Positions 3,737 to 43,101 of a stretch of DNA of 46,052 nucleotides are shown here, piece by piece. The DNA lies in the IMG/VR virus record IMGVR_UViG_3300017780_008441, positions 1-46,052 of that record, one strand, 5' to 3'. How positions within the stretch are numbered: the first letter of the stretch is position 1; each line of letters opens with the position of its first letter. The notes under the pieces are model-generated. The model worked only from the letters and a program-made list of their open reading frames with translations, was not told where the DNA came from and did not search any database. Made by a program: the position numbers and the translations under genes. This DNA comes from a virus. Its lineage: Duplodnaviria; Caudoviricetes.

Positions 3737-3809
3737 GGCCAAGTGACGGAACGGTATACGTATCGGTCTCAAAAACCGAGTTGTGTGGGTTCGAATCCCA
3801 CCTTGGCTA
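3737..3809 (+). tRNA. tRNA-Leu(CAA) with a short variable loop, no encoded CCA
   Basis: GGCCAAG/CTTGGCT-A acceptor, TCGGT/ACCGA anticodon stem with loop CT-CAA-AA, 5-nt variable loop GTTGT, GTGGG-TTCGAAT-CCCAC T arm. Confidence 0.85.
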
Positions 3810-3921
3810 GAACTAGAATGTCACAATACTTCCACGTAGTCTAGTTTGGACAACTTAATGTTGACTAAATTTGTGATAATGTTAAGATATTTTTGAGATG
3901 TTTCTATCTTAAAATATCTCT

Positions 3922-13458: not shown

Positions 13459-13472
13459 GTACCAATTACATT

Positions 13473-14105: not shown

Positions 14106-14112
14106 ACATTGA

Positions 14113-14670: not shown

Positions 14671-14673
14671 TTT

Positions 14674-15210: not shown

Positions 15211-15213
15211 ATT

Positions 15214-16128: not shown

Positions 16129-16162
16129 TTTGTTGCGCCGCTTAGCAACACAAAACCATGTT

Positions 16163-16192
16163 GGAGCCAGTAGAAATACTGGCTCCTTTTTT
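16163..16192 (+). terminator. Rho-independent terminator after queF
   Basis: GGAGCCAGTA-GAAA-TACTGGCTCC followed by TTTTTT. Confidence 0.9.
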
Positions 16193-16193
16193 G

Positions 16194-16222
16194 TTGATTG
16201 TTCATGGGAAACAATGTAATGT
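16194..16222 (+). promoter_or_regulatory. Sigma70-like promoter candidate for uvsE
   Basis: TTGATT-N17-TAATGT immediately after the terminator, 5 nt before ATG 16228. Confidence 0.4.
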
Positions 16223-16227
16223 ATTGT

Positions 16228-25031: not shown

Positions 25032-25044
25032 ATGATGTATTTAT

Positions 25045-27664: not shown

Positions 27665-28327
27665 TTATTTAATGCTGTTGATGAATTTAATGAACTGTTC
27701 ACGCAAGAAAACATCCATATCTTTTTTTGGCAATGTTTTAATGCTTTTTTCAAAACGATCATAACTTTCTTCAAAGGTACCATCAGCTGCTAAAACCCAC
27801 TGTTTGCTTTCCAAAATACCATTGACAAATGCTTTGGAGAAGCTGGGATCAGCAACACAGTCAATGGCTACCAATCGCATTTCTTTGACTTTGGAGTAGC
27901 CACTTTCTTCAACCAATTGACCCAATGCACGGGAGCTCATGCCAACTTTGACACCATCATTGACAAGAGAACGAACAATGAGACCACATGGTGTAGTAAG
28001 AATTTTGGATTTACCATAAAATACATTGCCATCTTGCCACATCTCTGTTACCAAATGACATGCTCTTTCCAAATTGACATCAGCTGTAGCAGGATGATTG
28101 AGCTCACCCATGGCGCGACGTTCTACAATCATTTCCTGCTTGTATCTGCCCACTTCACGTTCCATTTCATGCAAAGGATAAAAGCGCTTGTTTCTGTTGA
28201 CACCTTCTGCCATCATGTATGGACCTCTGATGAACATTGAACCAGGAGAATTGCGATCCTTTTCTTCGTAAATGATATCATATTCTTCAGTCGGAGCTGG
28301 AGTTTCAACTAGTAGTTTATAAGGCAT
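27665..28327 (-). CDS. gp21: Prohead protease
   Basis: NRNKRFYP, AMGELNHP, KILTTPCG, GMSSRALG, DCVADPS, AFVNGILE; start MPYKLL behind TATAAATA at 28333-28340. Confidence 0.95.
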   Translation of the reverse strand: MPYKLLVETPAPTEEYDIIYEEKDRNSPGSMFIRGPYMMAEGVNRNKRFYPLHEMEREVGRYKQEMIVERRAMGELNHPATADVNLERACHLVTEMWQDGNVFYGKSKILTTPCGLIVRSLVNDGVKVGMSSRALGQLVEESGYSKVKEMRLVAIDCVADPSFSKAFVNGILESKQWVLAADGTFEESYDRFEKSIKTLPKKDMDVFLREQFIKFINSIK

Positions 28328-28394
28328 GCTTTTATTTATATGTTTACTGGATATAAATCTATGACTACTATTATAGTTTATTGAATTTGTATTG

Positions 28395-29570
28395 TCATCC
28401 AACAAAGAACATAATGGGATCAGCATCACCCATGCCAGGAGAAGCACCAGTCAACATCATCTGCTCCAGTTTATCTTTCTCGGTTAAACCTTGCGTTACA
28501 ATGTCTGATGAGAAAACTTGACCACCAAACAATGGCAATGAACCATACTTGCCACGAACATAACCAACAGAAATCTTGGTGAGTGCCAATGCATATTGAT
28601 ACACCCATGGCTCTTTGACAACATCTCTCAGTGGTCTCTCAACCCAGCAAGGCAAACATCCATAGAAACTAGAACTGTTGGTAGGTTGTGGATACATGCG
28701 CAGCACTTGAGTTCTTTCGTCAAATTCAAATGCACGTTTGAGTGCCAACATTTTCTCTCTGGTATCCAACCACGTTTTGAGGGTGTACCATGATACCAGG
28801 TCAAACCCATAGTTGCCCATGGCATATGAGAAGTATGTTTGTTGTGCCAATGTTTGTTCAATGGTAAACAATGTATTGATGCCAGTGGATTCACCTTCTT
28901 CAAAATCAGTGATGGCAATGACTTTGCGATAATCCATGGTATCATAATCAAACATGTTGTTGTATATATCAACATATTGAGCATTGCTGCCTTGAATTGT
29001 AAGTGATCTCTCATTAACAGATGGCAAAAAGCGACCAGCAAAGTTGTAGCCAGATACAGATGGACTGGTCAACAAAGCTGCACTCAATTGATTGTAAGTG
29101 CTGGTGTCAAGGATTTCATTGTATTGAATGCCAGCTGCTGATGCTAAAGTTGCACTCAATGCAGACAAAGAAGAAAATACAGATGCTTCTACTGCACTTA
29201 CACAAACATATACAACAGGCATTGCTGAGATGTAAGATGATGTAGAACGAGATGGAGTTTTGTGTGCAAGTCTGTTGGCAAGTGTATCACTTGCCTTGAT
29301 GGTAAACAAGTGATCAATTCTGATGCCTTGATCTTGTGTATACAATGAAGAATCAAATACCAAATATTCTTTGGTGTATCCTGCATACTTGGTAAAAAAC
29401 TCACATGCAATGGCAATGTTTTCAAACAACTGGTCTTGATGCACTTCAATGGTAACAATGGGTGCACCCATGCTGCGTACAATTCTGTCTGCAAGACGAT
29501 TGAATGAATCAATCTTGTTGTTTAAGTTGGTGCTTTGAAAAGCTGAGACTGGTAAAATAGAGCAAGCCAT
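28395..29570 (-). CDS. gp13: Neck (head-tail adaptor) protein, T4 gp13-like, with a Ser/Ala-rich insertion
   Basis: RSMGAPIVTIEV, WVYQYALALTK...RGKY, PLFGG, C-terminal PIMFFVG. Confidence 0.85.
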   Translation of the reverse strand: MACSILPVSAFQSTNLNNKIDSFNRLADRIVRSMGAPIVTIEVHQDQLFENIAIACEFFTKYAGYTKEYLVFDSSLYTQDQGIRIDHLFTIKASDTLANRLAHKTPSRSTSSYISAMPVVYVCVSAVEASVFSSLSALSATLASAAGIQYNEILDTSTYNQLSAALLTSPSVSGYNFAGRFLPSVNERSLTIQGSNAQYVDIYNNMFDYDTMDYRKVIAITDFEEGESTGINTLFTIEQTLAQQTYFSYAMGNYGFDLVSWYTLKTWLDTREKMLALKRAFEFDERTQVLRMYPQPTNSSSFYGCLPCWVERPLRDVVKEPWVYQYALALTKISVGYVRGKYGSLPLFGGQVFSSDIVTQGLTEKDKLEQMMLTGASPGMGDADPIMFFVG

Positions 29571-29585
29571 ATAGCCTTATTTAGG

Positions 29586-31400
29586 CTATGCTGCTGGGGT
29601 TGCTGCTGGGGCTGGTGCAGGTGGTGCACCTTCTGGAGCTGGTGCAGGAGCACCAGCTGTTGCAGGCGATGCAGCTGCTCCACCAAAATCAGGTGGCAAG
29701 CCAGATATGCCTGGTGCACCAGGTGGAATGCCCAGTGAAGCTGCAGCACCAGCAGCACCTGCAGCATCTTCTGATTCTGAAGAAGCATTTTGAGCCTGTG
29801 TCTGAGCTGCTTTCCACCCTGGACCAGCTGATTCAATCTGCGCCAATTCCCATGCAAACTCTTTGTCTTTGCGCAAGAACTCTCTGTTGGCTTTGATTTC
29901 AATGTCATTCCAACCCAGCAATCTCTTTTGCATGTATGTTGGTGAGATGGTTGGATTTTGTCCTAGGCTGTTGAAATTATTCACTTTGAGTTCTAGCTTT
30001 TGTGATTCTCGCAACTCATAGAAGTTGCTTGGAGGATTCATCTTGATGATGAGATTGTATTCCTTCAAGTGCAGACGCTTCCACATCTTTTTGAGCTGCA
30101 AATGTGTGATGAAACCTTTCTTGAGACCAGCTGCAAACAATTGCTGCGTTCTCATGATGAAGCGAGCAAACTTGAGCTCTTCTCTCAAGATGTTGGCATC
30201 ACCTTGAAATGTGGATGCAGGATCCAACCTGTTGACTGGCACTTTGAGTGCTTCATACAATTTCTTGACAAAGTACATCAAGTCAGTCAGCTCACCAAGA
30301 TTAGCACCACCAGCCAATTGTGTTACACTGGTGCCTTCTGAACCTGTGCGTTTTGGAAACCAGAAGCTGTCCAACATGCTTTGTGGATTGAACTTTTGTA
30401 CAATGCTGTTTTGGTTGGGATCAAAAGTCTTGCTGTTCCAATACTGCTGCATCAACTTGCGCAAGTATGCTTCAGCTTTGGGTGGCGGCATGTTGCCTAC
30501 ATCCACATTGAACACAAGTTTCTCTGGTGCACGCACCATGCGATAAATCAAGATGCTGTCTTCTACCAGAGACAACTGTCTGTAAGCTCGGCGTGCATTT
30601 TCAATGAAAGGAAGTCTTGCAGTCTTTTGTTCATTCCAGATGCCAGAATTGACATACATGACTTGATTCTCTTGCATTGGCACAAGCTCTTCATCCATTT
30701 TTTTGCGACTGCTTTTGTCTTCAAAAATGGGCTTGCGATACAAGAAGCCTTTGATCATCATGTTTTGAATGTTGTTGTAAACAGGATCCATCAATTCAGA
30801 TGGAACGCGAACAATGCCCAGAATGCCTTCTTCTACATGATCTTTGTGAATAATGTGCTCAAAAAATAATTCTGATTCAATGAGCAAGTCTCTAAAATAA
30901 GACCATCCTCTGTGCTCCAAATCAAAGTATTGACAATACTTGCTGAACTCTTTTTCAATTTCTTGACGATCAACTGGAGTCAAATCAATGTCCTTGAAGT
31001 CAATGGTGCATACTCTGCCTTCCAAATCAGGATTGATGATTTCATCACAAACTTCATCCAGTGCATTGGATACTTCAGCAAAAGCAGCCATGATGCGGTA
31101 GTCAGAAAGACGCGGACCTTTGTCTGGCTGAATGTTGGCATACATGTAATCACTGAAGCCAACGTTGCGAATTTCACCAATGCTCTGTTTGTTGAACTCT
31201 GTATCTTGCGTGATGGAGTTGCGTGCCAGTGCTTCTGGTCTGCGAACGCCAATCTCATCAAATACTTCATATTTGGGATTTCTTCTTGCAGTTACATCCA
31301 AAACGTTGAAGCCAGAGTATGGCAGTTTAGACGCAATGTATGTCATCAAAGACCTACCAAAGGTAGATTGATTTGGAGGTTGGCTGCTGTATTTGTCCAT
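29586..31400 (-). CDS. gp20: Portal protein
   Basis: YRIMA..AEVSNAL, QLSLVEDSILIYRMVRAPEKLVFNVDVGNMP, SMLDSFWFPKR, GGANLGE, YFVKKLYEALKVP, REELKFARF; P/A/G-rich tail. Confidence 0.96.
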   Translation of the reverse strand: MDKYSSQPPNQSTFGRSLMTYIASKLPYSGFNVLDVTARRNPKYEVFDEIGVRRPEALARNSITQDTEFNKQSIGEIRNVGFSDYMYANIQPDKGPRLSDYRIMAAFAEVSNALDEVCDEIINPDLEGRVCTIDFKDIDLTPVDRQEIEKEFSKYCQYFDLEHRGWSYFRDLLIESELFFEHIIHKDHVEEGILGIVRVPSELMDPVYNNIQNMMIKGFLYRKPIFEDKSSRKKMDEELVPMQENQVMYVNSGIWNEQKTARLPFIENARRAYRQLSLVEDSILIYRMVRAPEKLVFNVDVGNMPPPKAEAYLRKLMQQYWNSKTFDPNQNSIVQKFNPQSMLDSFWFPKRTGSEGTSVTQLAGGANLGELTDLMYFVKKLYEALKVPVNRLDPASTFQGDANILREELKFARFIMRTQQLFAAGLKKGFITHLQLKKMWKRLHLKEYNLIIKMNPPSNFYELRESQKLELKVNNFNSLGQNPTISPTYMQKRLLGWNDIEIKANREFLRKDKEFAWELAQIESAGPGWKAAQTQAQNASSESEDAAGAAGAAASLGIPPGAPGISGLPPDFGGAAASPATAGAPAPAPEGAPPAPAPAATPAA

Positions 31401-31436
31401 TTACAATGTATTTAGTACCATTTGTGGCTTAAGCCA

Positions 31437-32630
31437 TTATGGAATTGTTAAAACAGTTTGATAAGCATCATATGTTGATGCCCAACCTGCGCTGTTGGTG
31501 AATACAAAAGTATAGTTGCCAGATGGCAAGTTGTTGGGCAGATTGACTGTTGCAACATTCTTGGACTGCACACTGTACAAATTGGTTGGCAAAATGTATC
31601 CTGTGATGGTAGGATAATAATCAAATGCTAAAGTTGATGCTGTATATCCAGATGGCACGCTGCTGCTGAGCAACACATTGAGTGTGTACTGAAAATTCTG
31701 ACCAATGATGGTAAAGTCCCTTGCAGAATTGGTGTTGTTGAGAGTCAAGTTGTTGAGCAATGGAACACCAATGAGTGTTGGTGATGCAGTTGTAATGGGT
31801 GTCAATGAGTTGGTGGGCACTTGCGTGTGGCCAAAAATATCTGTAATCTTTGGAGCAGCAGAAATGCTTATGACATCTGTAAAATATCCACCACTGGTAG
31901 CTTGCTTGATGGTAGTATAATCATCATAGTTGGTGTATTTGAGTTCATTGGGTCCACCAGCCAACAATCTGGTGTTGGTAAAGTTGGCATCAATGAAATA
32001 AATGTTGCTGATGGGCGGATTATCAGCAGCAGGAAACAGCCATCCTTTGATGATGAAGCCTGTGTCTGCTACAACTCTGTATTTGTCAGTGGGTGATAAA
32101 TCGCCAGGGTAGGTGAGAGTGACGCTGTTGTTCCATTCCACCTCAGAACGAATTTCATATACATTGGCCAAGTTGAATTCTTCTGGCACCTGCCAAACCA
32201 AAATGATGTAAGGGTTGGCATATGGAATAAAGTTGGATACAATTTGCTCCAAGTCAGTTTGATACTTGGCAATGATGGACAAGTTGACTGATATATTGAC
32301 AGGCACTGGCATGGGCAGCTGCTTGGTGAGTTTTGACTGTTTGGATGTAGCATTGTCAGGATAATAAAATCCATCCAGTTTATTAAACACTCTGTTGGCA
32401 TCTCTAGAGATGCTGTTGATGCTGATGGCAACAGCTGGCAGTGTCAGACTTTTGTCTTTGTTGACAATGTCATACAATACACGCTGTTTAGGTGCATATA
32501 CATATCTTACTTCAATTTGCTCTTGTGGCTCCCTTTGTCCATTGAAACGTTTAATTACGCATTCGTCAAATGCTGCAACGAACTGCGTAATTAAATCTTC
32601 TATCTCAAAGTGAAATGTTTGTTTCTTCAC
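31437..32630 (-). CDS. gp15: Tail completion/sheath stabilizer, T4 gp15-like, with a C-terminal extension
   Basis: VRYVYAPKQR, TLPAVAI, PVPVNI, QIVSNFIPYANP, FIIKGWLF; GTG start. Confidence 0.85.
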   Translation of the reverse strand: MKKQTFHFEIEDLITQFVAAFDECVIKRFNGQREPQEQIEVRYVYAPKQRVLYDIVNKDKSLTLPAVAISINSISRDANRVFNKLDGFYYPDNATSKQSKLTKQLPMPVPVNISVNLSIIAKYQTDLEQIVSNFIPYANPYIILVWQVPEEFNLANVYEIRSEVEWNNSVTLTYPGDLSPTDKYRVVADTGFIIKGWLFPAADNPPISNIYFIDANFTNTRLLAGGPNELKYTNYDDYTTIKQATSGGYFTDVISISAAPKITDIFGHTQVPTNSLTPITTASPTLIGVPLLNNLTLNNTNSARDFTIIGQNFQYTLNVLLSSSVPSGYTASTLAFDYYPTITGYILPTNLYSVQSKNVATVNLPNNLPSGNYTFVFTNSAGWASTYDAYQTVLTIP

Positions 32631-32638
32631 TTGTGTAT

Positions 32639-33877
32639 TTAGGCCAGCAAAGCAGAAACTGGCTTGCCTTTGTCAGCAAGTTTGAATGGTCTGCCTTGTG
32701 GCGAAATGACTACATCATCTACAGGCAATGCTGCAGCAGCTGCAATGGTAGCATTGAAGTCTGCAGGTGAAACAATGTTCTCTGATGCTTTCATGCCTTT
32801 GTCATCAGACTTGCCATATGCTTGACCACCCTTGATGCCAGCACCAATGAGTACACCACAAAATGCTCCAGGATGATGGTCACGTCCATCATTGATGTTG
32901 ATGTCAGGAGTACGACCAAAGTCAGTGGCAATGACAATGAGAGTCTTGTTGAGCAATCCACTGGACTGCAGATCATTGATGAGTGCATTCAATGCTTGAT
33001 CCAAAATGGTCAATTTGGTTTCAAGAGATTCAAAGTTGTTGACATGTGTATCCCAACCACCATCAGACACTTCAATGAATTTGCATGCACCTTTTTCAAT
33101 GAGACGTTTTGCTAAACAACAGCCCTGTCCAAATCTGTTGTTGCCATATTTTTCTCTGGCTGCTGCATCTTCTTTGGACAAATCAAATACATCCAATTCA
33201 TTGCTGTTGAGCAAACGAATGGTTTGATCATAAAACTCTGCATAGCTCTTTTGCAATGGGTTGATTATTTTGTTGGCATCTTTTTCAAGCTGATCAAGAA
33301 TAGATACACGCTTGGAAAATTCAGATGTATTTTTGAGCTTGGTATTATCCAATCCTTTGATGGGATCAGCAATGGGAATAGGAGAATACTTTTTAGGCAT
33401 CCAACCTGCACCAGGATGATCTGCTGCACCAGAAATCAAAACATTTTCTGGAATGACTTTTTCCTTGCCATTGTCAGTAAGCTTGCACATCCATGCTCCC
33501 AAGTTTGGATGCACAATGGTGCCAATTTTCTTGAATGATGTTCTTTGCATGTATTGTGCACCAGCATGGTCACCAGTAGTAACCATCATGCTGCGAACAA
33601 CTGCCATTTTGTCTCCATGCTTGGCAAGCTTGGGCAAGTGTTCAGAGATTTGATATCCTGCATTGGTAGTAATGGCATTGAATTTGCCTTTGACTTGAGC
33701 ATCAGTCTTGGGATCAAATGTATCCAAGTGACTCATGCCTCCATTCATAAACAAGTAGATGATGTGCTCTGCTTTGCTGGCTGTTGCAGGAGCAGCAGCA
33801 ATGTTGGGCAGAACAGTTACACCCAATCCTGCAGAAGCAAGGTTGAGCACAAAGTTGCGGCGTGTTAATGTATGCAT
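32639..33877 (-). CDS. DUF1501 family protein with a Tat signal peptide
   Basis: TRRNFV signal, IYLFMNGGMSHLDTFDPK, ISEHLPKLA, YGNNRFGQGCCLAKRLIE, GWDTH, TDFGRTP, GRDHHP, GAGIKGG. Confidence 0.92.
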   Translation of the reverse strand: MHTLTRRNFVLNLASAGLGVTVLPNIAAAPATASKAEHIIYLFMNGGMSHLDTFDPKTDAQVKGKFNAITTNAGYQISEHLPKLAKHGDKMAVVRSMMVTTGDHAGAQYMQRTSFKKIGTIVHPNLGAWMCKLTDNGKEKVIPENVLISGAADHPGAGWMPKKYSPIPIADPIKGLDNTKLKNTSEFSKRVSILDQLEKDANKIINPLQKSYAEFYDQTIRLLNSNELDVFDLSKEDAAAREKYGNNRFGQGCCLAKRLIEKGACKFIEVSDGGWDTHVNNFESLETKLTILDQALNALINDLQSSGLLNKTLIVIATDFGRTPDININDGRDHHPGAFCGVLIGAGIKGGQAYGKSDDKGMKASENIVSPADFNATIAAAAALPVDDVVISPQGRPFKLADKGKPVSALLA

Positions 33878-33881
33878 ATTG

Positions 33882-35660
33882 TTATTTATTAAATTTAAAT
33901 TCTGAACTGTTGACCAATGCCCAGATGATGTCATCATCTTGACAGCCTGTGAAGTTTGCCTTTTCAGCTATGCTGGGCTTGCGTGACAAAACTGATTTGA
34001 AAATTATGTCAATGGTTTCATTTGGCGATTTGCCAGCAACGTTTTTTGCCAATTGTGTATCTTTGTTGACTGCTATGTCTGCAAGCTGTCCATTCATGAA
34101 AGATATAACTTGTGTCACGCTGCCTTCTTGGCTGCTGGAATCAATGAGCTCTCTGTCTCCTCTGCCCAGTTGCTCCAAAATGGTGTTGACATTGCTGGCA
34201 TCATTGACTTCTGATGCACGTATTAAAGCATAGTTTTTGTATTTTGGTGCTGCATCATACTTGCTCTTGATTGTCTTTTGGTAATCATCATACTTGGTGC
34301 GAATGGTGTCCAAAGTTACATCAGCAGGCTGCACTTGCATGATGCCAGCATATGCATCATGAAATGTTAGTTTGAAGCTTTCTGGAGATGCAACAGCAAT
34401 TGCAATGACTGAATCCCAAATCTGCTCTGCACTCAATCTGTGTTTCACTGGACCAATGAATACAAACTTGGATGAATCAGCATTTGCACCATCATACAAT
34501 TGTCTTTGAAACAATTTGGTGTTGTACAATGCATACAAAAATTGTTTGCTGTCATAATTCACTTTGATCATGACATCAGCCAACACATTCAACAACTCAC
34601 TGTCCAACATTGCACTGTCATGAATGTTGTCATACTCATCAATGATGCATTTGCCAAACACCCATTTCCAATATCTGTTGACAATGTTTTTGGTGAATGT
34701 TGGATGCTGTGAATTTACCATCCATGCAACTGCATCTTTGCGCATGTCATCTTTGTTTTTGATTTGTGTTTTGCCGCTCAATACAATGGGCTCAACTGCA
34801 TCATAAGGCTTTGCATCTTTGTACTGATAGTCATGTGGCAATTTGAGTTGCTTGTTGGGCTCAATGGTTAAATCAGAACGCATGGCTCTGACGAAATTGT
34901 TGACTTGATTGTTGAGACCTCTGTTCTTCACAGGATCAGCTTTGATGAGTTCATCCACTTGTTGTCTCAGCATCTTTGATTTCTCATTGAATTCTTTGTT
35001 GTCTCTGCTGCGCAACTCCACTTGATTGAACAATGCAGCCATTCCATAAAATTGTTTTTGTGTAAAATCTTGAAATGGATCATCATGACACTGTGCGCAT
35101 CCAATATCAGTGCCCAAAAATACTTTGCTGGTGGCAATGAGATTGTCCATGGGCATTCCCAAGTCTCTGTAATAATAACCTACAGCAGGATTGGCAAAGT
35201 AGTTGCCACTGGACAACAGCAAATTAGAAACAAACTCATTGTATGGCTTGTTGGCTGCAATTTGATCCTTGATGTAATCAACATAAAGTGCCCCATGAAA
35301 ATTATTGACTTGATTGAGCTTGTCTCTGAGTCTCAATGACTCTGCCCAAAAATTGAACATGTGTGAAATGTGTCCAGGATGCTTGGTCAAATACAGAATA
35401 AGACTGCTGCGTTTGTTGGCATCAGCAACTTTGTTGAACATTTGATGCTCTTCATATGTTGGATTGCGACCAATGATGCTGAGATATGCTCTGCGTACAA
35501 ATGCATCATCATCTATTCTTGCATTGGGAGTTACTTGCAGCTGTGCATATTGTTTTTGTAAGACAGCATCAATGCTGTTGCTGAATTGGTTGAGTTGCTC
35601 AACTGTTGATCCAAAAGCAAATGAGCATACGCACAACAACATGGTGATAAATTTTTTCAT
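33882..35660 (-). CDS. DUF1549/DUF1553 (PSCyt2/PSD1) protein with a Sec signal and CxxCH
   Basis: MKKFITMLLCVCSFAFG signal; DDAFVRRAYLSIIGRNPT; FLGTDIGCAQCHDDPF; FTKNIVNRYWKWVFG; RLSAEQIWDS; DIIWALVNSSEF; TATAAATA at 35669-35676. Confidence 0.92.
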   Translation of the reverse strand: MKKFITMLLCVCSFAFGSTVEQLNQFSNSIDAVLQKQYAQLQVTPNARIDDDAFVRRAYLSIIGRNPTYEEHQMFNKVADANKRSSLILYLTKHPGHISHMFNFWAESLRLRDKLNQVNNFHGALYVDYIKDQIAANKPYNEFVSNLLLSSGNYFANPAVGYYYRDLGMPMDNLIATSKVFLGTDIGCAQCHDDPFQDFTQKQFYGMAALFNQVELRSRDNKEFNEKSKMLRQQVDELIKADPVKNRGLNNQVNNFVRAMRSDLTIEPNKQLKLPHDYQYKDAKPYDAVEPIVLSGKTQIKNKDDMRKDAVAWMVNSQHPTFTKNIVNRYWKWVFGKCIIDEYDNIHDSAMLDSELLNVLADVMIKVNYDSKQFLYALYNTKLFQRQLYDGANADSSKFVFIGPVKHRLSAEQIWDSVIAIAVASPESFKLTFHDAYAGIMQVQPADVTLDTIRTKYDDYQKTIKSKYDAAPKYKNYALIRASEVNDASNVNTILEQLGRGDRELIDSSSQEGSVTQVISFMNGQLADIAVNKDTQLAKNVAGKSPNETIDIIFKSVLSRKPSIAEKANFTGCQDDDIIWALVNSSEFKFNK

Positions 35661-35772
35661 ATCTTGTGTATTTATAATATACAGCAATTTATACCAGTGC
35701 GCCCCCTTTTTTAAATTTCAAAGAACTACTATACAATACGCTATTTAATGACCAATGCAACTAAATACAATT

Positions 35773-36129
35773 ATGAGCAAAGATTGTGATAACATTTTTT
35801 TATTGTATGAGCAAACAAAGCAACAAAGTGCATTTGCTGAATTTGCAGAAAAGCGCGGAGCAGGAGCTGCAAAGATTGCCAAGAATGCAAAAGAAAAAGG
35901 TGGTGTAGCAATGTTGACATATCATCATTTCAATGTCAAGAAGCCACATTATGACAAAGCTGCAGCTGGCAAATTTAATGTTGATGATGCAAAGAAAGAA
36001 CTCAAAAAGCTGACCAAGCATCTTGATGATGCTGTGGATGGCAAAGTAAAATTTGAGCAAATTGACTTTCAGAAAAAAGTTGGGCTCATTGAAGTATTGG
36101 GTGAGTTGCTTATAAAACTACAAGCCTAA
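35773..36129 (+). CDS. Hypothetical late protein
   Basis: Likely start MSKDCDNIFLLYEQ behind TAAATA at 35762-35767. Confidence 0.75.
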   Translation: MSKDCDNIFLLYEQTKQQSAFAEFAEKRGAGAAKIAKNAKEKGGVAMLTYHHFNVKKPHYDKAAAGKFNVDDAKKELKKLTKHLDDAVDGKVKFEQIDFQKKVGLIEVLGELLIKLQA

Positions 36130-36144
36130 CAAGGCAGCTGTGTC

Positions 36145-36585
36145 ATGGTCAAGATATTAATTTGTGGGCGCAGTGGCAGTGGCAAAAGCTTTCTTGCAAA
36201 TTACTTGAAACAGTCTTTTGAGTTTGTGCATTTCAATGGTGATGCAGTCAGAGCATCAACTGGCAACAAAGACTTTACCATGCATGGACGAATTCAACAA
36301 GCACAAGTGATGCATCAGTTGGCTGCAAATTGCAACAGCTGCATTGTTGTGTGTGATTTTATTTGTCCAACAAAACAATTGAGAAGCATCTTTGCGCCAG
36401 ACATCATAATTTATTGTGCACACAATGGCTCTGGAAAATATCAAGATACAGATTCATTGTTTCAACCAGTACAAACATCAGAAGCAGCAAATGTTTTTTT
36501 GTTTGAAAGAGGCAATGAAGAAGATTTAGTGTTAAAATTAATGCATGCCATTGCAAACAAATTAAGCCAACAACTATCTCACTAA
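36145..36585 (+). CDS. Adenylylsulfate-kinase (CysC)-like P-loop kinase
   Basis: GRSGSGKS, FNGDAVR, DFTMHGRIQQA, VVCDFICPT. Confidence 0.75.
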   Translation: MVKILICGRSGSGKSFLANYLKQSFEFVHFNGDAVRASTGNKDFTMHGRIQQAQVMHQLAANCNSCIVVCDFICPTKQLRSIFAPDIIIYCAHNGSGKYQDTDSLFQPVQTSEAANVFLFERGNEEDLVLKLMHAIANKLSQQLSH

Positions 36586-36613
36586 ACAAGTTACATAAAT
36601 ATAAATAAACAAT

Positions 36614-36940
36614 ATGCCACAACCACTTCCAAACAACAACGGTAGCACTTACTTCAACAGAAACATCTGTCGCTCGTTTAATCAACCACTTAGTACAAAT
36701 TTAGTTGCGCTATCTTCTCAAATTTGTGCAGAGTTAATCATTTACAACAAAACAGGTCAAGATGTGCAGGTGTTTGACAGCGACTATTTTAATAGCAGCA
36801 ATGCATTTGTATTGAGCAACAACGATAGTTTTGTGGTTAGAGGCATCACCAACAGTGCACAAGTGAGTGCTAAAACAACAACAGGCAGTGGTCTCATTTA
36901 CTACCGCACACAATATTTCTCAAGCAGCATTGCATTATAA
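36614..36940 (+). CDS. Hypothetical virion protein (beta-rich)
   Basis: 108 aa; TATAAATA at 36600-36607. Confidence 0.75.
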   Translation: MPQPLPNNNGSTYFNRNICRSFNQPLSTNLVALSSQICAELIIYNKTGQDVQVFDSDYFNSSNAFVLSNNDSFVVRGITNSAQVSAKTTTGSGLIYYRTQYFSSSIAL

Positions 36941-37332
36941 TGACTATTGGTGATTATGGATCTTATATTTCTACTGCAGGCTGCAGCATCGGCGGCTTTG
37001 GTGGCAGTGTAAATGGCGCTGGTGCTCCTACTTTAATCGACGCTGTATTTGCGTCAGGTGCTGGCACTGCAGAGGTAAATGGATTATATATACCTGACGG
37101 CACGACAGGAGGCAGGACGAGATACACTAATGCACTCACTGGAGTTTCATTTGCGTGGAATGGTGAAGAGTATCGAATCGGAGCTAGTGGTGGTATGGGT
37201 GATCTTTATTACGGTTCTGATAATATAGCTGGCGCGCCTAATAGTGATCCGTGGGATGGAATATATATAACTAATGGAGACGGCGCAGATCCACCTCCAA
37301 CTGTTCGCCAAGCAACAAGTGCTGACAGTTGA
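36940..37332 (+). CDS. Gly-rich hypothetical protein (possible fibre/decoration domain)
   Basis: 130 aa; SGAGTAEVNGLY segment; CpG-rich composition unlike its neighbours. Confidence 0.7.
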   Translation: MTIGDYGSYISTAGCSIGGFGGSVNGAGAPTLIDAVFASGAGTAEVNGLYIPDGTTGGRTRYTNALTGVSFAWNGEEYRIGASGGMGDLYYGSDNIAGAPNSDPWDGIYITNGDGADPPPTVRQATSADS

Positions 37333-37463
37333 TAAATCAATATCAGAATTTATTTGTTGTATAAGATTACTTCAAAGTTAATCCAGTAGCTTCACCTTCC
37401 TCACCCAAATAGCAGCTCTTAATTTCTGTTAGTGCAGAATGCAAGATGGGTCTGGTTATCTAC

Positions 37464-38720
37464 TCAAGCAATGATTTGCTCAATGGGTTGAGCTTCATAG
37501 ACAATTTCTACAGGTCGCATGTCAGGAGTCATGAGCCTTTTCCTAGGATCAATGCCCATGAGATGAAACATTGTAGCAGCCAACTGAGCTGGGGAAACTG
37601 GATCCGTTTCCGGTTCCGCTGCCAATGCATCACTGGTTCCATATGCAAAACCAGCCTTGGTTCCGCCTCCTGCCAACACAGTGGAAAACACACGTGGCCA
37701 GTGATCACGACCATTGGTGCCATTGATTTTAGGAGTTCTGCCAAATTCTGATGTAATCATAACCAATGTTGAATCCAGCAATCCTCTTTGTTTCAAATCA
37801 GTGATGAGCATTGCATATGCTTTATCAAAGTTGATCATGTTGGTTTCAAATGCGCTTTTGAGATTGCTGTGATGATCCCAACCACCATAAGTCACTGTCA
37901 CCATGCGTACACCTGCTTCCACCAGTCGGCGAGACAACAACAATCTTTGGCCAGCAGCATTTCTGCCATATGCATCACGCATCACATCAGTCTCTTTGCT
38001 CAATTCAAATGCTTCTCGTGCTTGTGTTGATGATAGCATGCTGTATGCATCATTGTAAAATGAGTCCATGGCCTTAACAGCATCCACATGTGATTCCTTG
38101 GTTTTGAAATAATCATCCACTGCTCCCAGCAATGATTTGCGGCGGCTCAACATTTCATCTGTTGAACCAGCAGGGGCGTTCAAGTCCTTTACGGAGAACG
38201 ATGGATCCTCTGGGTTTGCCCCCGTGGCAAATGGTCCGTAACGTGTTGATAGATATCCTGTGCCGTTCTCAGGAGCAAATTGATTTGGCACCAATACATA
38301 TGCTGGCAAATTGTTTCTGTTGCCCAATTGATGATTGATGACTGTACCAAAAGAAGGATATGCAAGTGCAGGAGAAGGTTTGTATCCTGTAAGCATATTA
38401 TGTACACCCCGTTCATGAGCTGCTTCACCATGAGTCATACTTCTAATGATGGTTAAATTGTCACTGATGTTGGCTGTGTTTTGCAGCAATGCACCAAAAT
38501 GTACATCAGCAATTTTGGTCTTGATGCCTGCAAATGGTCCACGATATTCAGTAGAACCATAAGGTTTGTAATCCCATGCATCTTGATGTGCAATGCCTCC
38601 AGGCAAGAAAATCTGAATTACAGAAGTTGCTTTGGCTTTTGTTGCTTGCTGACTGCGCAGCATAGTTGGCAATGAGATGCCAGCTGCTGCACCAATGCGG
38701 AGAATTTCTCTTCGGTTCAT
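37464..38720 (-). CDS. Second DUF1501 family protein with a Tat signal peptide
   Basis: MNRREILR signal, IFLPGGIAHQDAWDYKP, AHERG, YGRNAAGQRLLLSRRLVEAGVR, GWDHH, SEFGRTPKIN, GRDHWP, LAGGG. Confidence 0.92.
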   Translation of the reverse strand: MNRREILRIGAAAGISLPTMLRSQQATKAKATSVIQIFLPGGIAHQDAWDYKPYGSTEYRGPFAGIKTKIADVHFGALLQNTANISDNLTIIRSMTHGEAAHERGVHNMLTGYKPSPALAYPSFGTVINHQLGNRNNLPAYVLVPNQFAPENGTGYLSTRYGPFATGANPEDPSFSVKDLNAPAGSTDEMLSRRKSLLGAVDDYFKTKESHVDAVKAMDSFYNDAYSMLSSTQAREAFELSKETDVMRDAYGRNAAGQRLLLSRRLVEAGVRMVTVTYGGWDHHSNLKSAFETNMINFDKAYAMLITDLKQRGLLDSTLVMITSEFGRTPKINGTNGRDHWPRVFSTVLAGGGTKAGFAYGTSDALAAEPETDPVSPAQLAATMFHLMGIDPRKRLMTPDMRPVEIVYEAQPIEQIIA

Positions 38721-38746
38721 AACTGTATTTAATATACAACAGTGTT

Positions 38747-39181
38747 TTAGCTTTGCAACACTTTGATTGCATTCATCAACTCTTTGACAGATGCTTGCAA
38801 CATTTGCTGAGCCTTGATGGGTACAAACTGACCAATGAGAGACAATGCATTGAGCAAGTTTTGCATTTGTGGAGCCATTTGCTGCACCATTTGTGCATCA
38901 GAAGGAGCCAAATACAATGATGCAAATTGAGGAGAGCTGAAAATTTGATCAGCTTGTTGAAATGCTTGTGCTACTTGCGCTTGTTGTTGCTGCACTGCAG
39001 CTGCATCTGGATTTTGAGTCAAGGTATCCATGATGTTGTTCTTGCTGAAGTAGTTGATGAATGCATCAGTAGCAACCATGGCACGGTCCAATGCTGCTGT
39101 CCTTTGAGGTTCAGATGCTGCACTTTTGCGCAAATTTTGCAACACTTGCTCGTATCGTTCTATGATGTTGTAGTATCTCAT
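38747..39181 (-). CDS. Hypothetical Gln-rich helical protein
   Basis: 144 aa; ATGA overlap with the upstream gene. Confidence 0.75.
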   Translation of the reverse strand: MRYYNIIERYEQVLQNLRKSAASEPQRTAALDRAMVATDAFINYFSKNNIMDTLTQNPDAAAVQQQQAQVAQAFQQADQIFSSPQFASLYLAPSDAQMVQQMAPQMQNLLNALSLIGQFVPIKAQQMLQASVKELMNAIKVLQS

Positions 39182-39939
39182 TGCATTGTCAACGGTTTGA
39201 GTGTTGATATATTTTTGTAGTAATCTTTTCTGTAAAATGTTTCACCACCAATGTCCATGGCTGAGCCAGGAGCAGCATCATAACCACCACGCTTGACAGA
39301 TGCAGCTACAGAAGCAGAGCCAGCATCAGTAGCGCCTTTGGTAATATTGGACCCTTGCAATGCAGCATTGATGGATTGTTGCAATGCAGCTGCTCTTGTG
39401 GGTGTCATACTTCTTGCAGCTCTGTTGAATCCACCATCTGTATATGGCTGATAATATTTTGCATTGGAGATGACTTGATCTACAGACTTGCCAGTTGCTA
39501 GTGCTCTGTTGAATACTGTCTCAGCAAATGCTGCTTGAGATTGTGGATTGTTTGAACCTACTTCTGCAGCCATGAGAGTAGCAAATTTATTAGCTACAAC
39601 TGGGTTGCTCAATTCTTTTTGAAACTGTTGTCTCATTTCTCCAGCAGTTGCATTTGGTGCAAATGATGTTGATGCAGGAGATAATGTTGGAGCTGCTGCA
39701 GTGCTGCCTGATGCAGCAGGTGTTCTACCTTGAGATCTTGCAACTGCAGCAGTATCTACTCTTCCGCTAGCATCTTTAAATTGGTTTGCGCCAGGTACAT
39801 TGACATTTATTTCAGGTGCAACATCAACAACTTGCTTTTGCATTGTTGGAGTGTATACACCTGGAATAGCAGGCAATGAAACAGCTTCTGCCAGCTGCAA
39901 ATGTAGTTCTGCTTGTTGCACCAATTGTTGCCAATTCAT
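39178..39939 (-). CDS. Protein with a C-terminal SleB/Hydrolase_2-like cell-wall hydrolase domain
   Basis: LMAAEVG (catalytic Glu), QAAFAETVFNRA, SVDQVI..YYQP, NITKGAT, IGGETFY; TATAAATA at 39945-39952. Confidence 0.65.
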   Translation of the reverse strand: MNWQQLVQQAELHLQLAEAVSLPAIPGVYTPTMQKQVVDVAPEINVNVPGANQFKDASGRVDTAAVARSQGRTPAASGSTAAAPTLSPASTSFAPNATAGEMRQQFQKELSNPVVANKFATLMAAEVGSNNPQSQAAFAETVFNRALATGKSVDQVISNAKYYQPYTDGGFNRAARSMTPTRAAALQQSINAALQGSNITKGATDAGSASVAASVKRGGYDAAPGSAMDIGGETFYRKDYYKNISTLKPLTMQ

Positions 39940-39957
39940 GCTGTTATTTATAGCAGA

Positions 39958-40593
39958 TTACCTGTTGAAAAAGCCACCTTTGCTAAACAATGGCTTGATG
40001 CTTGATTTAGGCTTGTCACTTGGCAGCTGCGCGCCTGTTGAACCATATGTTCGCATTTCTCTATCTGGACTTTTGAATCTGCTGAAGAATGAACGTTTAG
40101 TTGGTTCAGCAGCAGGTGCAGAGACAGACTTGGGCATTGTGTTTACGCTGGGTTTGCTTGTTGCTGATTTAATGCGTTCAGGCCCTTTATCATCAAGAGG
40201 AGTTGGTGGAAATACATCACCATCACCAAACGCAGTTGGTATTGCACCCAACCCAGCTCCTAAAGCTCCAGCAGCAGCGATTTTTCTTAATTTTGGTAAT
40301 CTTGGAGTAATTTTTGCAGCATCAATGTCTATTACCTTTTTGGGTACAGATTTAGTTGTAGTTAATGATCTATTTGGTGGTATAATTTCATCAATTTCTG
40401 TTACTTTTCTGGTGGACGGTGTGGTCAATGATCTGCTTGGAAGTGATAATTGCTTTGTTGGTACACTTGGTGCACCACCCATTAAGCGTTTAATACCTTG
40501 TGCACCAGATACAACAAGATCACCAATGCCTTCATTTGCAATCTTTGTAGCATACTTTTCAAAAATTAATTCATTATCCTGAGAGTTGTTCAT
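39958..40593 (-). CDS. Hypothetical low-complexity late protein with a Gly/Ala hydrophobic patch
   Basis: Likely start MNNSQDNELIFEKY; KIAAAGALGAGLGAIP; ATAAATA at 40599-40605. Confidence 0.7.
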   Translation of the reverse strand: MNNSQDNELIFEKYATKIANEGIGDLVVSGAQGIKRLMGGAPSVPTKQLSLPSRSLTTPSTRKVTEIDEIIPPNRSLTTTKSVPKKVIDIDAAKITPRLPKLRKIAAAGALGAGLGAIPTAFGDGDVFPPTPLDDKGPERIKSATSKPSVNTMPKSVSAPAAEPTKRSFFSRFKSPDREMRTYGSTGAQLPSDKPKSSIKPLFSKGGFFNR

Positions 40594-40597
40594 ACGT

Positions 40598-42004
40598 TTA
40601 TTTATGCATGCTGTGATGCAAGTAGTCAATTAATGCATTGAAATTATCAGCCAACATGCCAGCAGCTTTAGCCTTTTGTTGAGCTTTTGGTGTCAATGCA
40701 GAGCCTTGTTTGGCACCAAAGTAACTTTTAGCAGCATCCCATATGGAGCTGCCTGTCTCTGCAGCTTTGACACCACTGCGTGCAATAGTTTCAACTGGAT
40801 TTACTGCAGCATCATATGCTGTTTGTGCTGCCATTTGCCCATATTTGCCTTGATCAACTAAATCAATGTCTCTTTGATTTTTTGATTGCAAGTTTTGTTT
40901 AAATGCTTTTGGGTCTTTAGAGTAATTATATGCCATCATGGCTGGTTCGATTGCTAGTGCAGCTCCACCTAATAATTTACTTCCCAATTTGCCTGCTGCA
41001 GCTGGCGCAGCTTTGCCTGCTGCTTTGTTTGCTAAACTCTGAACACCTTGTATTTGTGCTGGTACATCCATTAAACCTGCAGCAGTATTAATTCCAGCTG
41101 CAACAGGTGATGCTTGAAATTCTTGTGCAACGGTTTTTGCTGCAGGTGCAGCTGTTGCAGGTGCAGCTGTTGCAGGTGCAGCTGTTGCAGGAGCAGGTGC
41201 AGCTGTTGTACCAGCAGCTGGCTGAGCTTGTGCAGGTGCAGGTTTAGCTGCTGATGCAGGTTTATTATTCATAGCGCTGTAGATGTTTTGAGCATTGAGC
41301 GTTTTGCCTTGACTCTGTAAATCCTGAATAACCTTCATTTTGCCAGCATCCATGGTGCTGCCTGCATTGTATGCACCTGCTTTACTACCAGCCATATATT
41401 TGTTGAAAGCAGCAACAGCACCTTGATTAGGTTTATTATTAACTGTTGCTGGTGCAGCAGTTGGTGCTGGTGCAGCAGTTGGTGCTGGTGCAGCAGTTGG
41501 TGCTGGTGCAGCAGTTGGTGCTGGTGCAGCAGTTGGTGCTGGTGCACCTCTTGGCGGTGCTGCTAGTGCGCCTCTTGGTGCTGATGCAGCAGTTGGTGCT
41601 GATGCAGCAGGTGCAAGGGGAGATGCTCTGGTTATAGTAGAACTACCTGTGGCTGTATTTACAGATTTAACAGCATTTCTAGATGTAGAAGTGGATCCAG
41701 GAGCAACATTGTTTTGCTGTGTTTGTGTGTTGTTTGTATTTGTTTTATTAAATTGTGTTCTGGTTGGTGCTGGAGGGGTGGATGACCAACTAGTATCACT
41801 GATCTGCGGCTTTTGGTTTTGAAATGCTGCTTCTTCATCTGGTGTAGTTTGTTGTTGCGCATCACGCATGCGCAGAATATCTTCTCCGCGTTGCTTCAAC
41901 ATTCCTGCTTGACCAATTCCAGGTTCATTTGAATATGTAGGTCTTACAGCTTCCAAAATAGAATGTTCATACAGTGCCCAAATTTTATTACTTTCAGTCG
42001 ACAT
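40598..42004 (-). CDS. Ala/Pro-rich late protein, probable ejected/internal protein
   Basis: 468 aa; PTAAPA and PATAA repeats; GKLGSKLLGGAALAI. Confidence 0.8.
   Translation of the reverse strand: MSTESNKIWALYEHSILEAVRPTYSNEPGIGQAGMLKQRGEDILRMRDAQQQTTPDEEAAFQNQKPQISDTSWSSTPPAPTRTQFNKTNTNNTQTQQNNVAPGSTSTSRNAVKSVNTATGSSTITRASPLAPAASAPTAASAPRGALAAPPRGAPAPTAAPAPTAAPAPTAAPAPTAAPAPTAAPATVNNKPNQGAVAAFNKYMAGSKAGAYNAGSTMDAGKMKVIQDLQSQGKTLNAQNIYSAMNNKPASAAKPAPAQAQPAAGTTAAPAPATAAPATAAPATAAPAAKTVAQEFQASPVAAGINTAAGLMDVPAQIQGVQSLANKAAGKAAPAAAGKLGSKLLGGAALAIEPAMMAYNYSKDPKAFKQNLQSKNQRDIDLVDQGKYGQMAAQTAYDAAVNPVETIARSGVKAAETGSSIWDAAKSYFGAKQGSALTPKAQQKAKAAGMLADNFNALIDYLHHSMHK
41447..41546. repeat. 18-bp coding tandem repeat x5.5 (PTAAPA)
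   Basis: TGCTGGTGCAGCAGTTGG x5 plus a partial copy; a related 15-bp repeat lies at about 41140-41208. Confidence 0.9.
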
Positions 42005-42008
42005 ATGG

Positions 42009-42389
42009 TTATTTAAGTAATTGGTGCTGCAAAGAGTCGACTACATTGTTGAAATTGTCTTGCAGCGTTGTTTTTGGACGAGCTATATTGATGCATCTGT
42101 GATGTTTTTGTTGTTCTTCTTGTTCTTCTTGTTCTTGTTGCTCATCTTGCACCAGTTGTTCATCTTGTGATACAACAGATGGTGCAGGTGCAGCAGTCAT
42201 TTGTGGCTGTGCGCGGACAATGGTTTGTGGTTGTGGCATCACTTGCACATTGACTTGTGGTGCAGCTTGTGGCTTTTGAGCTGCAGCATTCAACTGTGTT
42301 GCTTTTTTGTCATTGCTGGTGGGTTGATATTGTGGAGGCTGTGCAGCAGACTGTTCATACAAAGTCCAAATTTCATTGCAATCATTCAT
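42009..42389 (-). CDS. Gln/Pro-rich late protein
   Basis: Likely start MNDCNEIWTLYEQ behind TATAAATA at 42395-42402. Confidence 0.75.
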   Translation of the reverse strand: MNDCNEIWTLYEQSAAQPPQYQPTSNDKKATQLNAAAQKPQAAPQVNVQVMPQPQTIVRAQPQMTAAPAPSVVSQDEQLVQDEQQEQEEQEEQQKHHRCINIARPKTTLQDNFNNVVDSLQHQLLK

Positions 42390-42394
42390 GTGTA

Positions 42395-42418
42395 TATTTA
42401 TACATGTGTTTATAAATA
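42395..42418. promoter_or_regulatory. Back-to-back divergent T4-type late promoters
   Basis: TATTTATA (42395-42402, - strand promoter) and TATAAATA (42411-42418, + strand). Confidence 0.8.
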
Positions 42419-42429
42419 AATGACACAGC

Positions 42430-42789
42430 ATGCATTTTACCAAACCAACTGCCAAGTCATACATTTATGATGCTCATTTGTCTCAACAAGAGATGTTGCA
42501 ACTGTTGATGCGCAACATGTCAAATGCTGTTGCAGATTTTAAACCATACAATACCAAACAATGGAACATCAACAGGTTGGAAATGGTGGAAGCTTTTCAT
42601 CGCGCCATTGCATGCATTTTTATGATGCAGCCTTTGCCTCCTGATGCTGCCAGCATGGTAGAAATGTCTTATGAGACACCTGTGTACCGGGAATTGAGTG
42701 CAACACATGGCAAAGGCAATATAATCAATCAAGTGTATATACATGATGAACATGATGAACAAATCAACAGCACACCACAACGCATATAA
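42430..42789 (+). CDS. Hypothetical protein
   Basis: 119 aa ORF behind a late promoter. Confidence 0.65.
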   Translation: MHFTKPTAKSYIYDAHLSQQEMLQLLMRNMSNAVADFKPYNTKQWNINRLEMVEAFHRAIACIFMMQPLPPDAASMVEMSYETPVYRELSATHGKGNIINQVYIHDEHDEQINSTPQRI

Positions 42790-42798
42790 ATACAACAT

Positions 42799-43101
42799 AT
42801 GACTCAAGTACCAGTTGACGAAGCTTTGCGCACCATGGTGTATGCATTCAATGATGCAGTGGAAGCTGTGTATGATGAAGCTCAGTACATGCTAGATTTT
42901 GATGCCACCATGCGTATGCAACATCACTTGGCATTGTTGGCTGGTGCATTGGAGACTGTGATACACATATTGTTGTATCCTTTGAATCCTAGATTGGACA
43001 TGAGTGATCGCAGCATGCAGCAAGCTGAAAACTACTTGGGTCAATATGATGATAGTGGCATAGCCATTGTGTACCCCAGTGGTGAAGAAATGATGTTTTG
43101 A
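42799..43101 (+). CDS. Hypothetical protein
   Basis: 100 aa ORF; TATAAATA at 42785-42792. Confidence 0.65.
   Translation: MTQVPVDEALRTMVYAFNDAVEAVYDEAQYMLDFDATMRMQHHLALLAGALETVIHILLYPLNPRLDMSDRSMQQAENYLGQYDDSGIAIVYPSGEEMMF

Follow-up and report, generated by a model that had tools for sequence, protein, structure and literature searches.

How a T4-like phage came to carry genes of a family otherwise known from bacteria of the Planctomycetes-Verrucomicrobia-Chlamydiae (PVC) group, and what such genes might do during infection, is the question raised by positions 32,639 to 38,720 of the IMG/VR virus record IMGVR_UViG_3300017780_008441 (Duplodnaviria; Caudoviricetes). The 46,052-nt stretch analysed here, referred to below as the window, is a 46-kb fragment rated 22% complete by CheckV. 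The three genes in question encode a protein combining the PSCyt2 (DUF1549) and PSD1 (DUF1553) domains, and two DUF1501 proteins, here designated DUF1501_A and DUF1501_B. In Planctomycetes, Verrucomicrobia and Lentisphaerae, DUF1501 proteins occur in modules with PSCyt1, PSCyt2 and PSD1 proteins, according to the available text of two reports (Kamneva et al. 2012, PMC3542564; He et al. 2017, PMC5615132). Based on the analyses below, we propose with a probability of about 60% that the phage genes encode exported auxiliary enzymes, namely metal-dependent ester hydrolases or transferases, which would function in the periplasm during infection and supplement the DUF1501 systems of the host.

Three PVC-type genes in a T4-like phage

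Each of the three genes is intact and lies on the minus strand (Table 1). The PSCyt2/PSD1 protein matches the Pfam families PF07583 (E 1.6e-33, 116.8 bits) and PF07587 (E 2.9e-28, 99.3 bits), and its homologues start at MKK in the alignment. Its TAA stop codon ends 4 nt ahead of the ATG of DUF1501_A, which matches PF07394 (E 4e-98, 329.5 bits against a cut-off of 27). DUF1501_B lies 1.8 kb upstream of this pair, shares 30.4% identity with DUF1501_A and has the residues AKA immediately ahead of its first strand. An initial annotation, made from the DNA sequence alone, had described an intact DUF1549/1553 protein with a CAQCH motif followed directly by a DUF1501 gene, a second and clearly divergent DUF1501 gene upstream, Sec and twin-arginine translocation (Tat) signals, an orientation in common with gp15, portal and capsid, and a TAAATA core 5-8 nt before each ATG. 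Each of these observations held: the Pfam matches are all far above threshold, the cores lie 8, 5 and 5 nt before the start codons of PSCyt2/PSD1, DUF1501_A and DUF1501_B, and the signal types agree with inspection of the N-termini and with h-region hydropathy only.

The window encodes a T4-type portal, the gp15 tail-sheath stabiliser, a prohead protease and a major capsid protein near the module, as recognised with Pfam and PHROGs, together with ribonucleotide reductase and other nucleotide-metabolism genes; gp15, portal and capsid share the minus-strand orientation of the three module genes. The phage represents a lineage without a known cultured relative, within a deep, uncultured clade of freshwater T4-like phages with genomes of 185-225 kb, whose major capsid protein is only 32-34% identical to that of any cultured phage.

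Given the bacterial background of the family and the fragmentary state of the window, bacterial DNA misjoined to a phage contig had to be considered. In each of two related genomes with direct terminal repeats, both rated 100% complete (G006, 224,703 bp; G007, 184,542 bp), DUF1501 is nevertheless matched exactly twice and PSD1 exactly once. Contigs from three other freshwater metagenome runs span the junction between gp15 and DUF1501_A, covering positions 30723-35558, 31114-35518 and 32479-35251 with zero, four and zero differences, respectively. The three genes have a GC content of 0.40-0.45, a third-codon-position GC content (GC3) of 0.36-0.42 and an observed/expected (o/e) CpG ratio of 0.16-0.43, and the whole window has a GC content of 0.41 and a CpG o/e of 0.37, compared with a GC content of 0.57-0.65, a GC3 of 0.65-0.86 and a CpG o/e of 0.9-1.4 in six cellular orthologues. 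No cellular copy of DUF1501_B exceeds 60% identity, either among the 80 best loci of a scan in which every species was represented by a single genome or in 401 sampled genomes, and the phage copies group in clades of their own (see below). The independent contigs, taken with the complete genomes and the composition, rule out a chimera, whose probability we regard as practically nil. The low-CpG, phage-like composition noted in the initial annotation was thereby confirmed, and neither an assembly break at the gp15 junction nor near-identity to chromosomal copies, two of the warning signs it had named, was encountered. Within gp15, more abundant extra contigs from four runs match only the 35-nt stretch at 32479-32513 and diverge on both sides of it, with a depth of up to 50 in the corresponding bin; this is probably an exactly conserved stretch common to related phages in the same lakes.

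The 8-mer TATAAATA before the PSCyt2/PSD1 gene exactly matches the T4 late-promoter consensus, and the motifs before DUF1501_A and DUF1501_B are variants of it. A TAAATA followed after 5-8 nt by ATG occurs 30 times in the window versus 2.4 times expected (maximum of six in 100 shuffles), and the full 8-mer occurs ten times versus 0.9 expected, so the placement of the motif is not due to chance. TAAATA precedes most structural and unknown genes, the three module genes and the block at 38720-42800 (e.g. at 25029-25043, 31398-31414 and 42002-42015), and the metabolic block at 12661-17160 lacks the TAAATA-ATG motif. The motif before the three genes is conserved in closer relatives, but not in the group comprising loci L021, L022 and L025. 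With a spacing of 5-8 nt, transcription would start at or next to the ATG, resulting in nearly leaderless mRNAs. Among the sequencing runs listed for the sequence there was none of RNA. Based on this pattern, TAAATA is plausibly a late, phage-controlled promoter; alternatively, it may double as a translation-start context. The assignment of T4 late promoters to the module thus stands with regard to the presence and enrichment of the motif and its sharing with structural genes, but the motif is not specific to the module, being found at approximately 30 starts, and its role as a late promoter is our interpretation.

Conservation, loss and ancestry of the module

A scan with DUF1501_B recovered 24 IMG/VR loci (55-96% identity), 17 with a PSCyt2/PSD1 gene and 13 with an A-type DUF1501 gene within the DNA examined around the locus. 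An alignment scan with the PSCyt2/PSD1 protein recovered 45 viral loci (32-96% identity). An A-type DUF1501 gene in the same orientation follows at a distance of no more than 400 nt at all 38 of these loci with room for one, the other seven ending too early. Phage contigs carrying both families, for which the initial annotation had proposed a search, thus number in the dozens. The best 120 matches to PSCyt2/PSD1 in a collection of 5.8 billion proteins show 40-95% identity, are approximately 590 aa long and come from contigs no longer than 210 kb. Relatives differ in where the pair lies with respect to DUF1501_B and gp15.

Ratios of nonsynonymous to synonymous substitution rates (dN/dS) were 0.06-0.16 against the related loci L003, L016 and L018, and are rough because dS is saturated; they show the three genes to be under strong purifying selection. 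DUF1501_A and DUF1501_B are better conserved than portal or gp15, with a dN of 0.07-0.13 against L003 and L016, compared with 0.26 for portal and 0.40 for gp15 in the same genomes. A near-complete relative, G008 (203,774 bp, 96% complete; the record containing locus L015), has kept DUF1501_B and has no PSD1 gene, and at its positions 28162-28410 a remnant of DUF1501_A comprises 83 C-terminal residues (profile positions 307-389) in a 136-aa frame. We interpret G008 as a natural deletion of the pair beside gp15, which implies that the pair is dispensable and accessory. Being host-derived, located in bona fide phage genomes, non-core and under selection, with a predicted metabolic role, the genes have the attributes of phage auxiliary genes.

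The first named cellular matches of DUF1501_B belong to the Verrucomicrobiaceae (Prosthecobacter, Phragmitibacter and metagenome-assembled genomes (MAGs); 57-59% identity), and the 80 best loci in genomes include Verrucomicrobiales at 55-60% and Planctomycetota at 49-55% identity. In a quick maximum-likelihood tree (108 rows, LG+G4, Shimodaira-Hasegawa-like approximate likelihood ratio test (SH-aLRT) support only), 22 viral loci and six unnamed proteins form a clade of 28 with an SH-aLRT of 100 and a stem of 0.37, placed inside an unresolved group with Verrucomicrobiota and Phycisphaerae-type sequences. Named matches of DUF1501_A are MAGs of Planctomycetaceae and Phycisphaeraceae (47-48% identity), while identities are 44-48% in four Verrucomicrobiales genomes and 35% in an Aeoliella genome. 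A quick tree of 50 rows places the window copy, most viral loci and unnamed proteins, including ones from ocean surveys, in a clade of 35 rows (SH-aLRT 99), whose sister clade (support 96) comprises the Verrucomicrobiales copies, a Phycisphaeraceae MAG and a viral group (L157/L159/L161). Separation from host paralogues, which the initial annotation had proposed to examine by phylogeny, is therefore seen for both DUF1501 genes, and, on the evidence of the phage-specific clades on long stems, each gene was acquired by this phage lineage a single time, in the distant past, from a PVC donor, for which Verrucomicrobiota are the better, though unproven, candidate. The PVC host proposed earlier is not supported as stated, since it was deduced from gene ancestry alone and the nearest cellular orthologues are approximately 20 GC points higher. 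The DUF1501 gene of one further viral contig, L024, branches with Chthoniobacteraceae outside the main phage clade; this gene and those of L157-L163 could be separate captures or belong to misclassified contigs.

Gene order in cellular genomes divides the module. The top matches to the PSCyt2/PSD1 protein (34-38% identity) adjoin those to DUF1501_A in the four Verrucomicrobiales genomes, and according to Pfam each of these four short pairs consists of a 634-708-aa PSCyt2+PSD1 protein with a 431-439-aa DUF1501 protein encoded after it, i.e. the architecture of the phage pair. A separate PSCyt1 protein is encoded downstream in two of the four, and no other consistent neighbour or functional context was found at these loci. 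Cellular orthologues of DUF1501_B (49-60% identity) are instead followed, 3.0-5.2 kb further on the same strand, by a PSCyt2/PSD1 gene at 57 of the 58 loci for which 5.2 kb or more of downstream sequence was available. At two cellular loci (L082 and L030), the intervening gene encodes a PPC-domain protein of 772-821 aa and the third gene a PSCyt2+PSD1 protein of 808-836 aa, with a Big_2 domain in L030. This arrangement matches the most complex cluster in the available text of Kamneva et al. 2012 (PMC3542564), of which the phage has only the DUF1501 orthologue. The queries used detected neither a PPC protein nor PF04151 in the window, G000, G006, G007 or G008, and PF07635 (PSCyt1) was found neither in the window protein nor in these four genomes, in a genome search run without a positive control. 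A second PSD1 gene was likewise not found in the near-complete relatives, the single one being of the short-pair type. In phages lacking the PPC protein and a second PSD1 gene, DUF1501_B would be an orphan catalytic subunit. The module thus comprises two separately derived units, PSCyt2/PSD1 with DUF1501_A as a short pair, and DUF1501_B as the enzyme of a three-gene cellular cluster. The earlier suggestion that the phage had domesticated a host complex is borne out in so far as these are genuine phage genes of PVC ancestry, conserved in a large phage clade, but they do not represent a single host complex, as the two units correspond to different cellular clusters.

Predicted periplasmic chemistry and its alternatives

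The PSCyt2/PSD1 protein begins with MKK and a hydrophobic stretch with a 12-aa hydropathy peak of 2.42, compared with h-region values of 1.70-1.76 in the DUF1501 N-termini, which bear paired arginines conserved throughout the phage clade. A more hydrophobic N-terminus is the expected pattern for Sec relative to Tat signals. PSCyt2/PSD1 is therefore likely exported by Sec, and DUF1501_A and DUF1501_B by Tat. The sequence CAQCHDDPF, which contains a CxxCH motif typical of haem c attachment, is invariant in all 28 aligned phage-type PSCyt2/PSD1 homologues, suggesting a putative haem c. The structural model of this protein is all-alpha (predicted local distance difference test (pLDDT) 84, predicted template modelling score (pTM) 0.85), and a Foldseek search of the PDB with this 592-aa helical model returned no matches at E ≤ 0.001 and no cytochrome-like structure.

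The DUF1501_B model (mean pLDDT 69, pTM 0.75) matches type I/S1 sulfatases and the lipoteichoic acid synthase LtaS with a Foldseek probability of 1.00 (111 matches at E ≤ 0.001), LtaS structures holding ranks 12, 19, 35, 38 and 45 and sulfatases ranking higher. When a profile of DUF1501_B homologues was compared with the PDB, only a helix-strand region ending in SEFGR aligned with its sulfatase or LtaS equivalent; this SEFGR/TDFGR-ending region corresponds to the metal-binding strand of both, in an alignment that is not significant by E-value. PDB sequence searches with DUF1501_B, PSCyt2/PSD1 and the A1 profile gave no significant match. Polar residues invariant in DUF1501_B, DUF1501_A and the cellular homologues are D50, K52, S94, H102, T111, D282, H284, R328 and H340, while E/D325 and D339 are conserved in the same alignment without being invariant. 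DUF1501_A and DUF1501_B are regarded as putative members of the alkaline phosphatase superfamily with an active-site make-up of their own. Membership of the type I formylglycine sulfatases was considered and rejected, as the signature motif is missing and only the fold is shared, and no module protein matches the Pfam Sulfatase family at E ≤ 0.01. No PHROGs family was found for any of the three proteins and no NCBIfam family was matched; an ESM Atlas feature search that excluded the query protein's own families gave uninformative scores of 0.76-0.77.

According to the mechanism that we favour, the CAQCH protein would reach the periplasm of the infected cell through Sec, a route suited to periplasmic haem attachment, and the two DUF1501 proteins through Tat, a route suited to folding with a metal in the cytoplasm. 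PSCyt2/PSD1 and DUF1501_A would form a two-protein enzyme, as their adjacency and order are invariant in phages and the same in cells. DUF1501_B could act alone, with the phage PSCyt2/PSD1 protein, or docked on PPC and PSCyt2/PSD1 partners of the host. The alkaline-phosphatase-superfamily fold, the conserved Asp, His, Ser and Arg residues and the lack of a formylglycine signature suggest cleavage or transfer of phospho- or sulfo-esters. As to the substrate, our favoured guess, which we would expect to be right about one time in three, is that organic esters in the periplasm may be a source of phosphate scavenged for the synthesis of phage DNA.

Several observations weigh against this proposal. 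The DUF1501_B model is only moderately confident, with a weak WDHH loop, and its fold matches have low template modelling (TM) scores of 0.34-0.42 at 9-14% identity. None of the PDB sequence-profile matches of DUF1501_B homologues is significant (best E 0.03), and no catalytic nucleophile was recognised. The sulfatase signature C/S-x-P-x-R is absent from DUF1501_B, and the sole near-match in DUF1501_A is CLAKR, in which Ala replaces Pro. One relative exists without the pair. DUF1501_B orthologues are scarce, occurring in 11 of 401 sampled genomes from the phylum of G001 (E ≤ 1e-100), and the host is not settled, given a phage GC content of 41% compared with 57-65% in the nearest cellular donors. 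Late expression fits nutrient scavenging poorly. The functions of the DUF1501, PSCyt and PSD1 families are given as unknown in the available text of two reports (PMC3542564, PMC5615132).

A more specific form of the proposal, which we regard as a doubtful possibility, is subunit substitution, whereby DUF1501_B would dock on the PPC and PSCyt2/PSD1 scaffold of the host, PSCyt2/PSD1 with DUF1501_A would be a self-contained minimal haem-metalloenzyme, and the family as a whole would be a modular periplasmic ester-processing system. The initial annotation had placed envelope remodelling, superinfection exclusion and lysis among the possible roles; these were not supported as stated, as nothing found here speaks for them. 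In the first, DUF1501 proteins with transferase or esterase activity towards envelope precursors in the periplasm would alter the cell surface at a late stage of infection, so that superinfecting phages are excluded or receptors masked. LtaS and phosphoethanolamine transferases are alkaline-phosphatase-superfamily enzymes that act on envelope precursors, LtaS is among the best fold matches of DUF1501_B and is its best, non-significant, sequence-profile match, the upstream motif suggests late timing, and the genes adjoin structural genes both here and in L003, L004, L016, L018 and L019. The fold matches are weak, however, with sulfatases above LtaS, and the DUF1501 proteins have no membrane anchor, unlike LtaS and EptA. 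The 19-63 cellular paralogues per genome fit substrate-diverse catabolism better than envelope biosynthesis, and a lytic T4-like phage would gain little by late exclusion, making this role unlikely.

Electron transport was proposed for the family by Kamneva et al. 2012, as far as the available text goes (PMC3542564), and a periplasmic c-type cytochrome exchanging electrons with DUF1501 or the host respiratory chain, thereby sustaining the energy supply, would explain the invariance of the CxxCH motif and the PSCyt1 protein adjoining two of the four cellular short pairs. Such a redox role is quite unlikely given a single CxxCH in a helical protein of this size without a cytochrome-like structural match, a partner with a hydrolase rather than an oxidoreductase fold, and the lack of PSCyt1 in the phage genomes in the uncontrolled search described above. 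We consider it very unlikely that late exported enzymes aid virion release by weakening a polymer of the PVC envelope, in the periplasm or further out: the late-type motif and predicted periplasmic destination would suit such a function, but nothing in the vicinity was recognised as a holin, endolysin or spanin context, the near-complete G008 does without the pair, and the pair does not keep a constant position among relatives.

Known systems, genomic neighbours and significance

The phage genes share with the PVC module the Pfam families, the PSCyt2/PSD1-DUF1501 order, the CxxCH motif and the DUF1501 twin-arginine motif, and their architecture is that of the Verrucomicrobiales short pair. They differ in being located in a lytic-type T4-like phage rather than a PVC genome, with phage-like composition and phage-specific clades, and in being present as a single copy of each, compared with 19-63 DUF1501 matches per bacterial genome. 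PSCyt1, Big_2, PPC and WD40 partners were not found in the phage genomes examined, although the partners in cellular short pairs also lack PSCyt1. Cyanophage pstS and phoA are phage auxiliary genes for nutrient acquisition, and the module resembles them in being host-derived, under purifying selection, carried by aquatic T4-like phages, predicted to act in the envelope or periplasm and patchily distributed among relatives (G008). Unlike pstS and phoA, it has no assigned substrate or pathway, its upstream motif is the phage's own rather than a host Pho box, and its families have no PHROGs match and are represented in cultured phages by one marginal hit, namely that of DUF1501_B among INPHARED records (33% coverage, 33.6% identity). 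Type I sulfatases and LtaS have the core fold in common with DUF1501 at the low identities and TM scores given above; DUF1501 carries a Tat motif rather than a Sec or lipoprotein signal, and its partner protein appears to be obligatory.

No report of a phage-borne DUF1501/PSCyt2/PSD1 module was found in the literature searched, a search that covered main texts and left supplementary tables of virome papers outside; a weak DUF1501 hit in CDD to a 61-aa Pseudomonas phage protein appears in the available text of one paper (PMC5418858). The description of the module as an undescribed system therefore holds for the literature searched, but IMG/VR contains dozens of such contigs. New here are the split into two cellular orthogroups, the orphan DUF1501_B, the finding that G008 has naturally lost the pair, the confirmation of the junction by independent assemblies and the genome-wide motif pattern.

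Table 1 Coordinates of the module genes, their motifs and selected neighbouring features in the window
Feature	Positions	Strand	Remarks
PSCyt2+PSD1 (DUF1549/DUF1553) protein, 592 aa	33882..35660	-	Likely start ATG 35660 (MKKF); start in open reading frame (ORF) list TTG 35687
CAQCH, CxxCH haem-c-type motif	35085..35099	-	Translation verified; inside CAQCHDDPF
TATAAATA	35669..35676	-	8 nt before PSCyt2/PSD1 ATG
DUF1501_A, 412 aa	32639..33877	-	Likely start ATG 33877 (MHTLTRRNF), where homologues begin; start in ORF list 33937
Twin-arginine motif TRRNFV of DUF1501_A	33848-33865	-	
AATAAATA	33883..33890	-	5 nt before DUF1501_A ATG; overlaps PSCyt2/PSD1 stop codon; conserved in close relatives
DUF1501_B, 418 aa (MNRREIL)	37464..38720	-	PF07394 E 1.4e-108, 364 bits against a cut-off of 27
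Twin-arginine motif NRREIL of DUF1501_B	38700-38717	-	
ATTAAATA	38726..38733	-	5 nt before DUF1501_B ATG; TAAATA kept there in 8 of 13 relatives examined
Major capsid protein	25101-26543	-	32-34% identity to any cultured T4-like phage; best matches cyanomyoviruses
Four small ORFs between DUF1501_B and the pair	35755/35773-36129; 36145-36585; 36614-36940; 36940-37332	+	Context; module membership not implied
P-loop kinase, 146 aa	36145-36585	+	Partial, weak adenylyl-sulfate-kinase matches: Pfam 25.4 bits (residues 3-81); PDB 2yvu E 0.012

Among the small ORFs between DUF1501_B and the pair (Table 1), the P-loop kinase was considered as an adenylyl-sulfate (APS) kinase, an assignment dropped because its matches are only partial and weak. 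Homologues of this kinase lie near the module in several relatives and directly after DUF1501_A in L018, L019, L127 and L138, and a homologue of the ORF at 36614 adjoins DUF1501_B in L003, L004, L015, L016 and L018-L020. Further upstream, a 468-aa ORF at 40598-42004 (minus strand) contains long Ala/Pro/Thr-rich repeats (runs of APAPTAAP) and matches no family, and the ORFs beside it at 38747-40629, located behind TAAATA motifs, are likewise orphans. Elsewhere in the window, adjacent genes for tRNA-Ile (anticodon TAT) and tRNA-Leu (CAA) are found at 3638-3733 and 3736-3810 (plus strand), the former unusually long at 96 nt according to ARAGORN and 93 nt according to Rfam.

Few gene families in Planctomycetes and Verrucomicrobia are as large as DUF1501 and PSCyt/PSD1, which have been without an assigned function since their description by Kamneva et al. 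2012, as far as the available source text goes (PMC3542564). The phage versions, being single-copy, minimal (592 aa and approximately 415 aa) and strongly conserved, mark the key residues and the pairing, and offer compact constructs for protein expression, structural work and the analysis of haem and metals. For the uncultured clade of freshwater T4-like phages to which the window belongs, the genes provide a clue to the host. If subunit substitution were true, a family regarded as 'planctomycete-specific' would be one of phosphate or sulfate acquisition, important enough to have been retained by lake and ocean phages alike over a long period of divergence.

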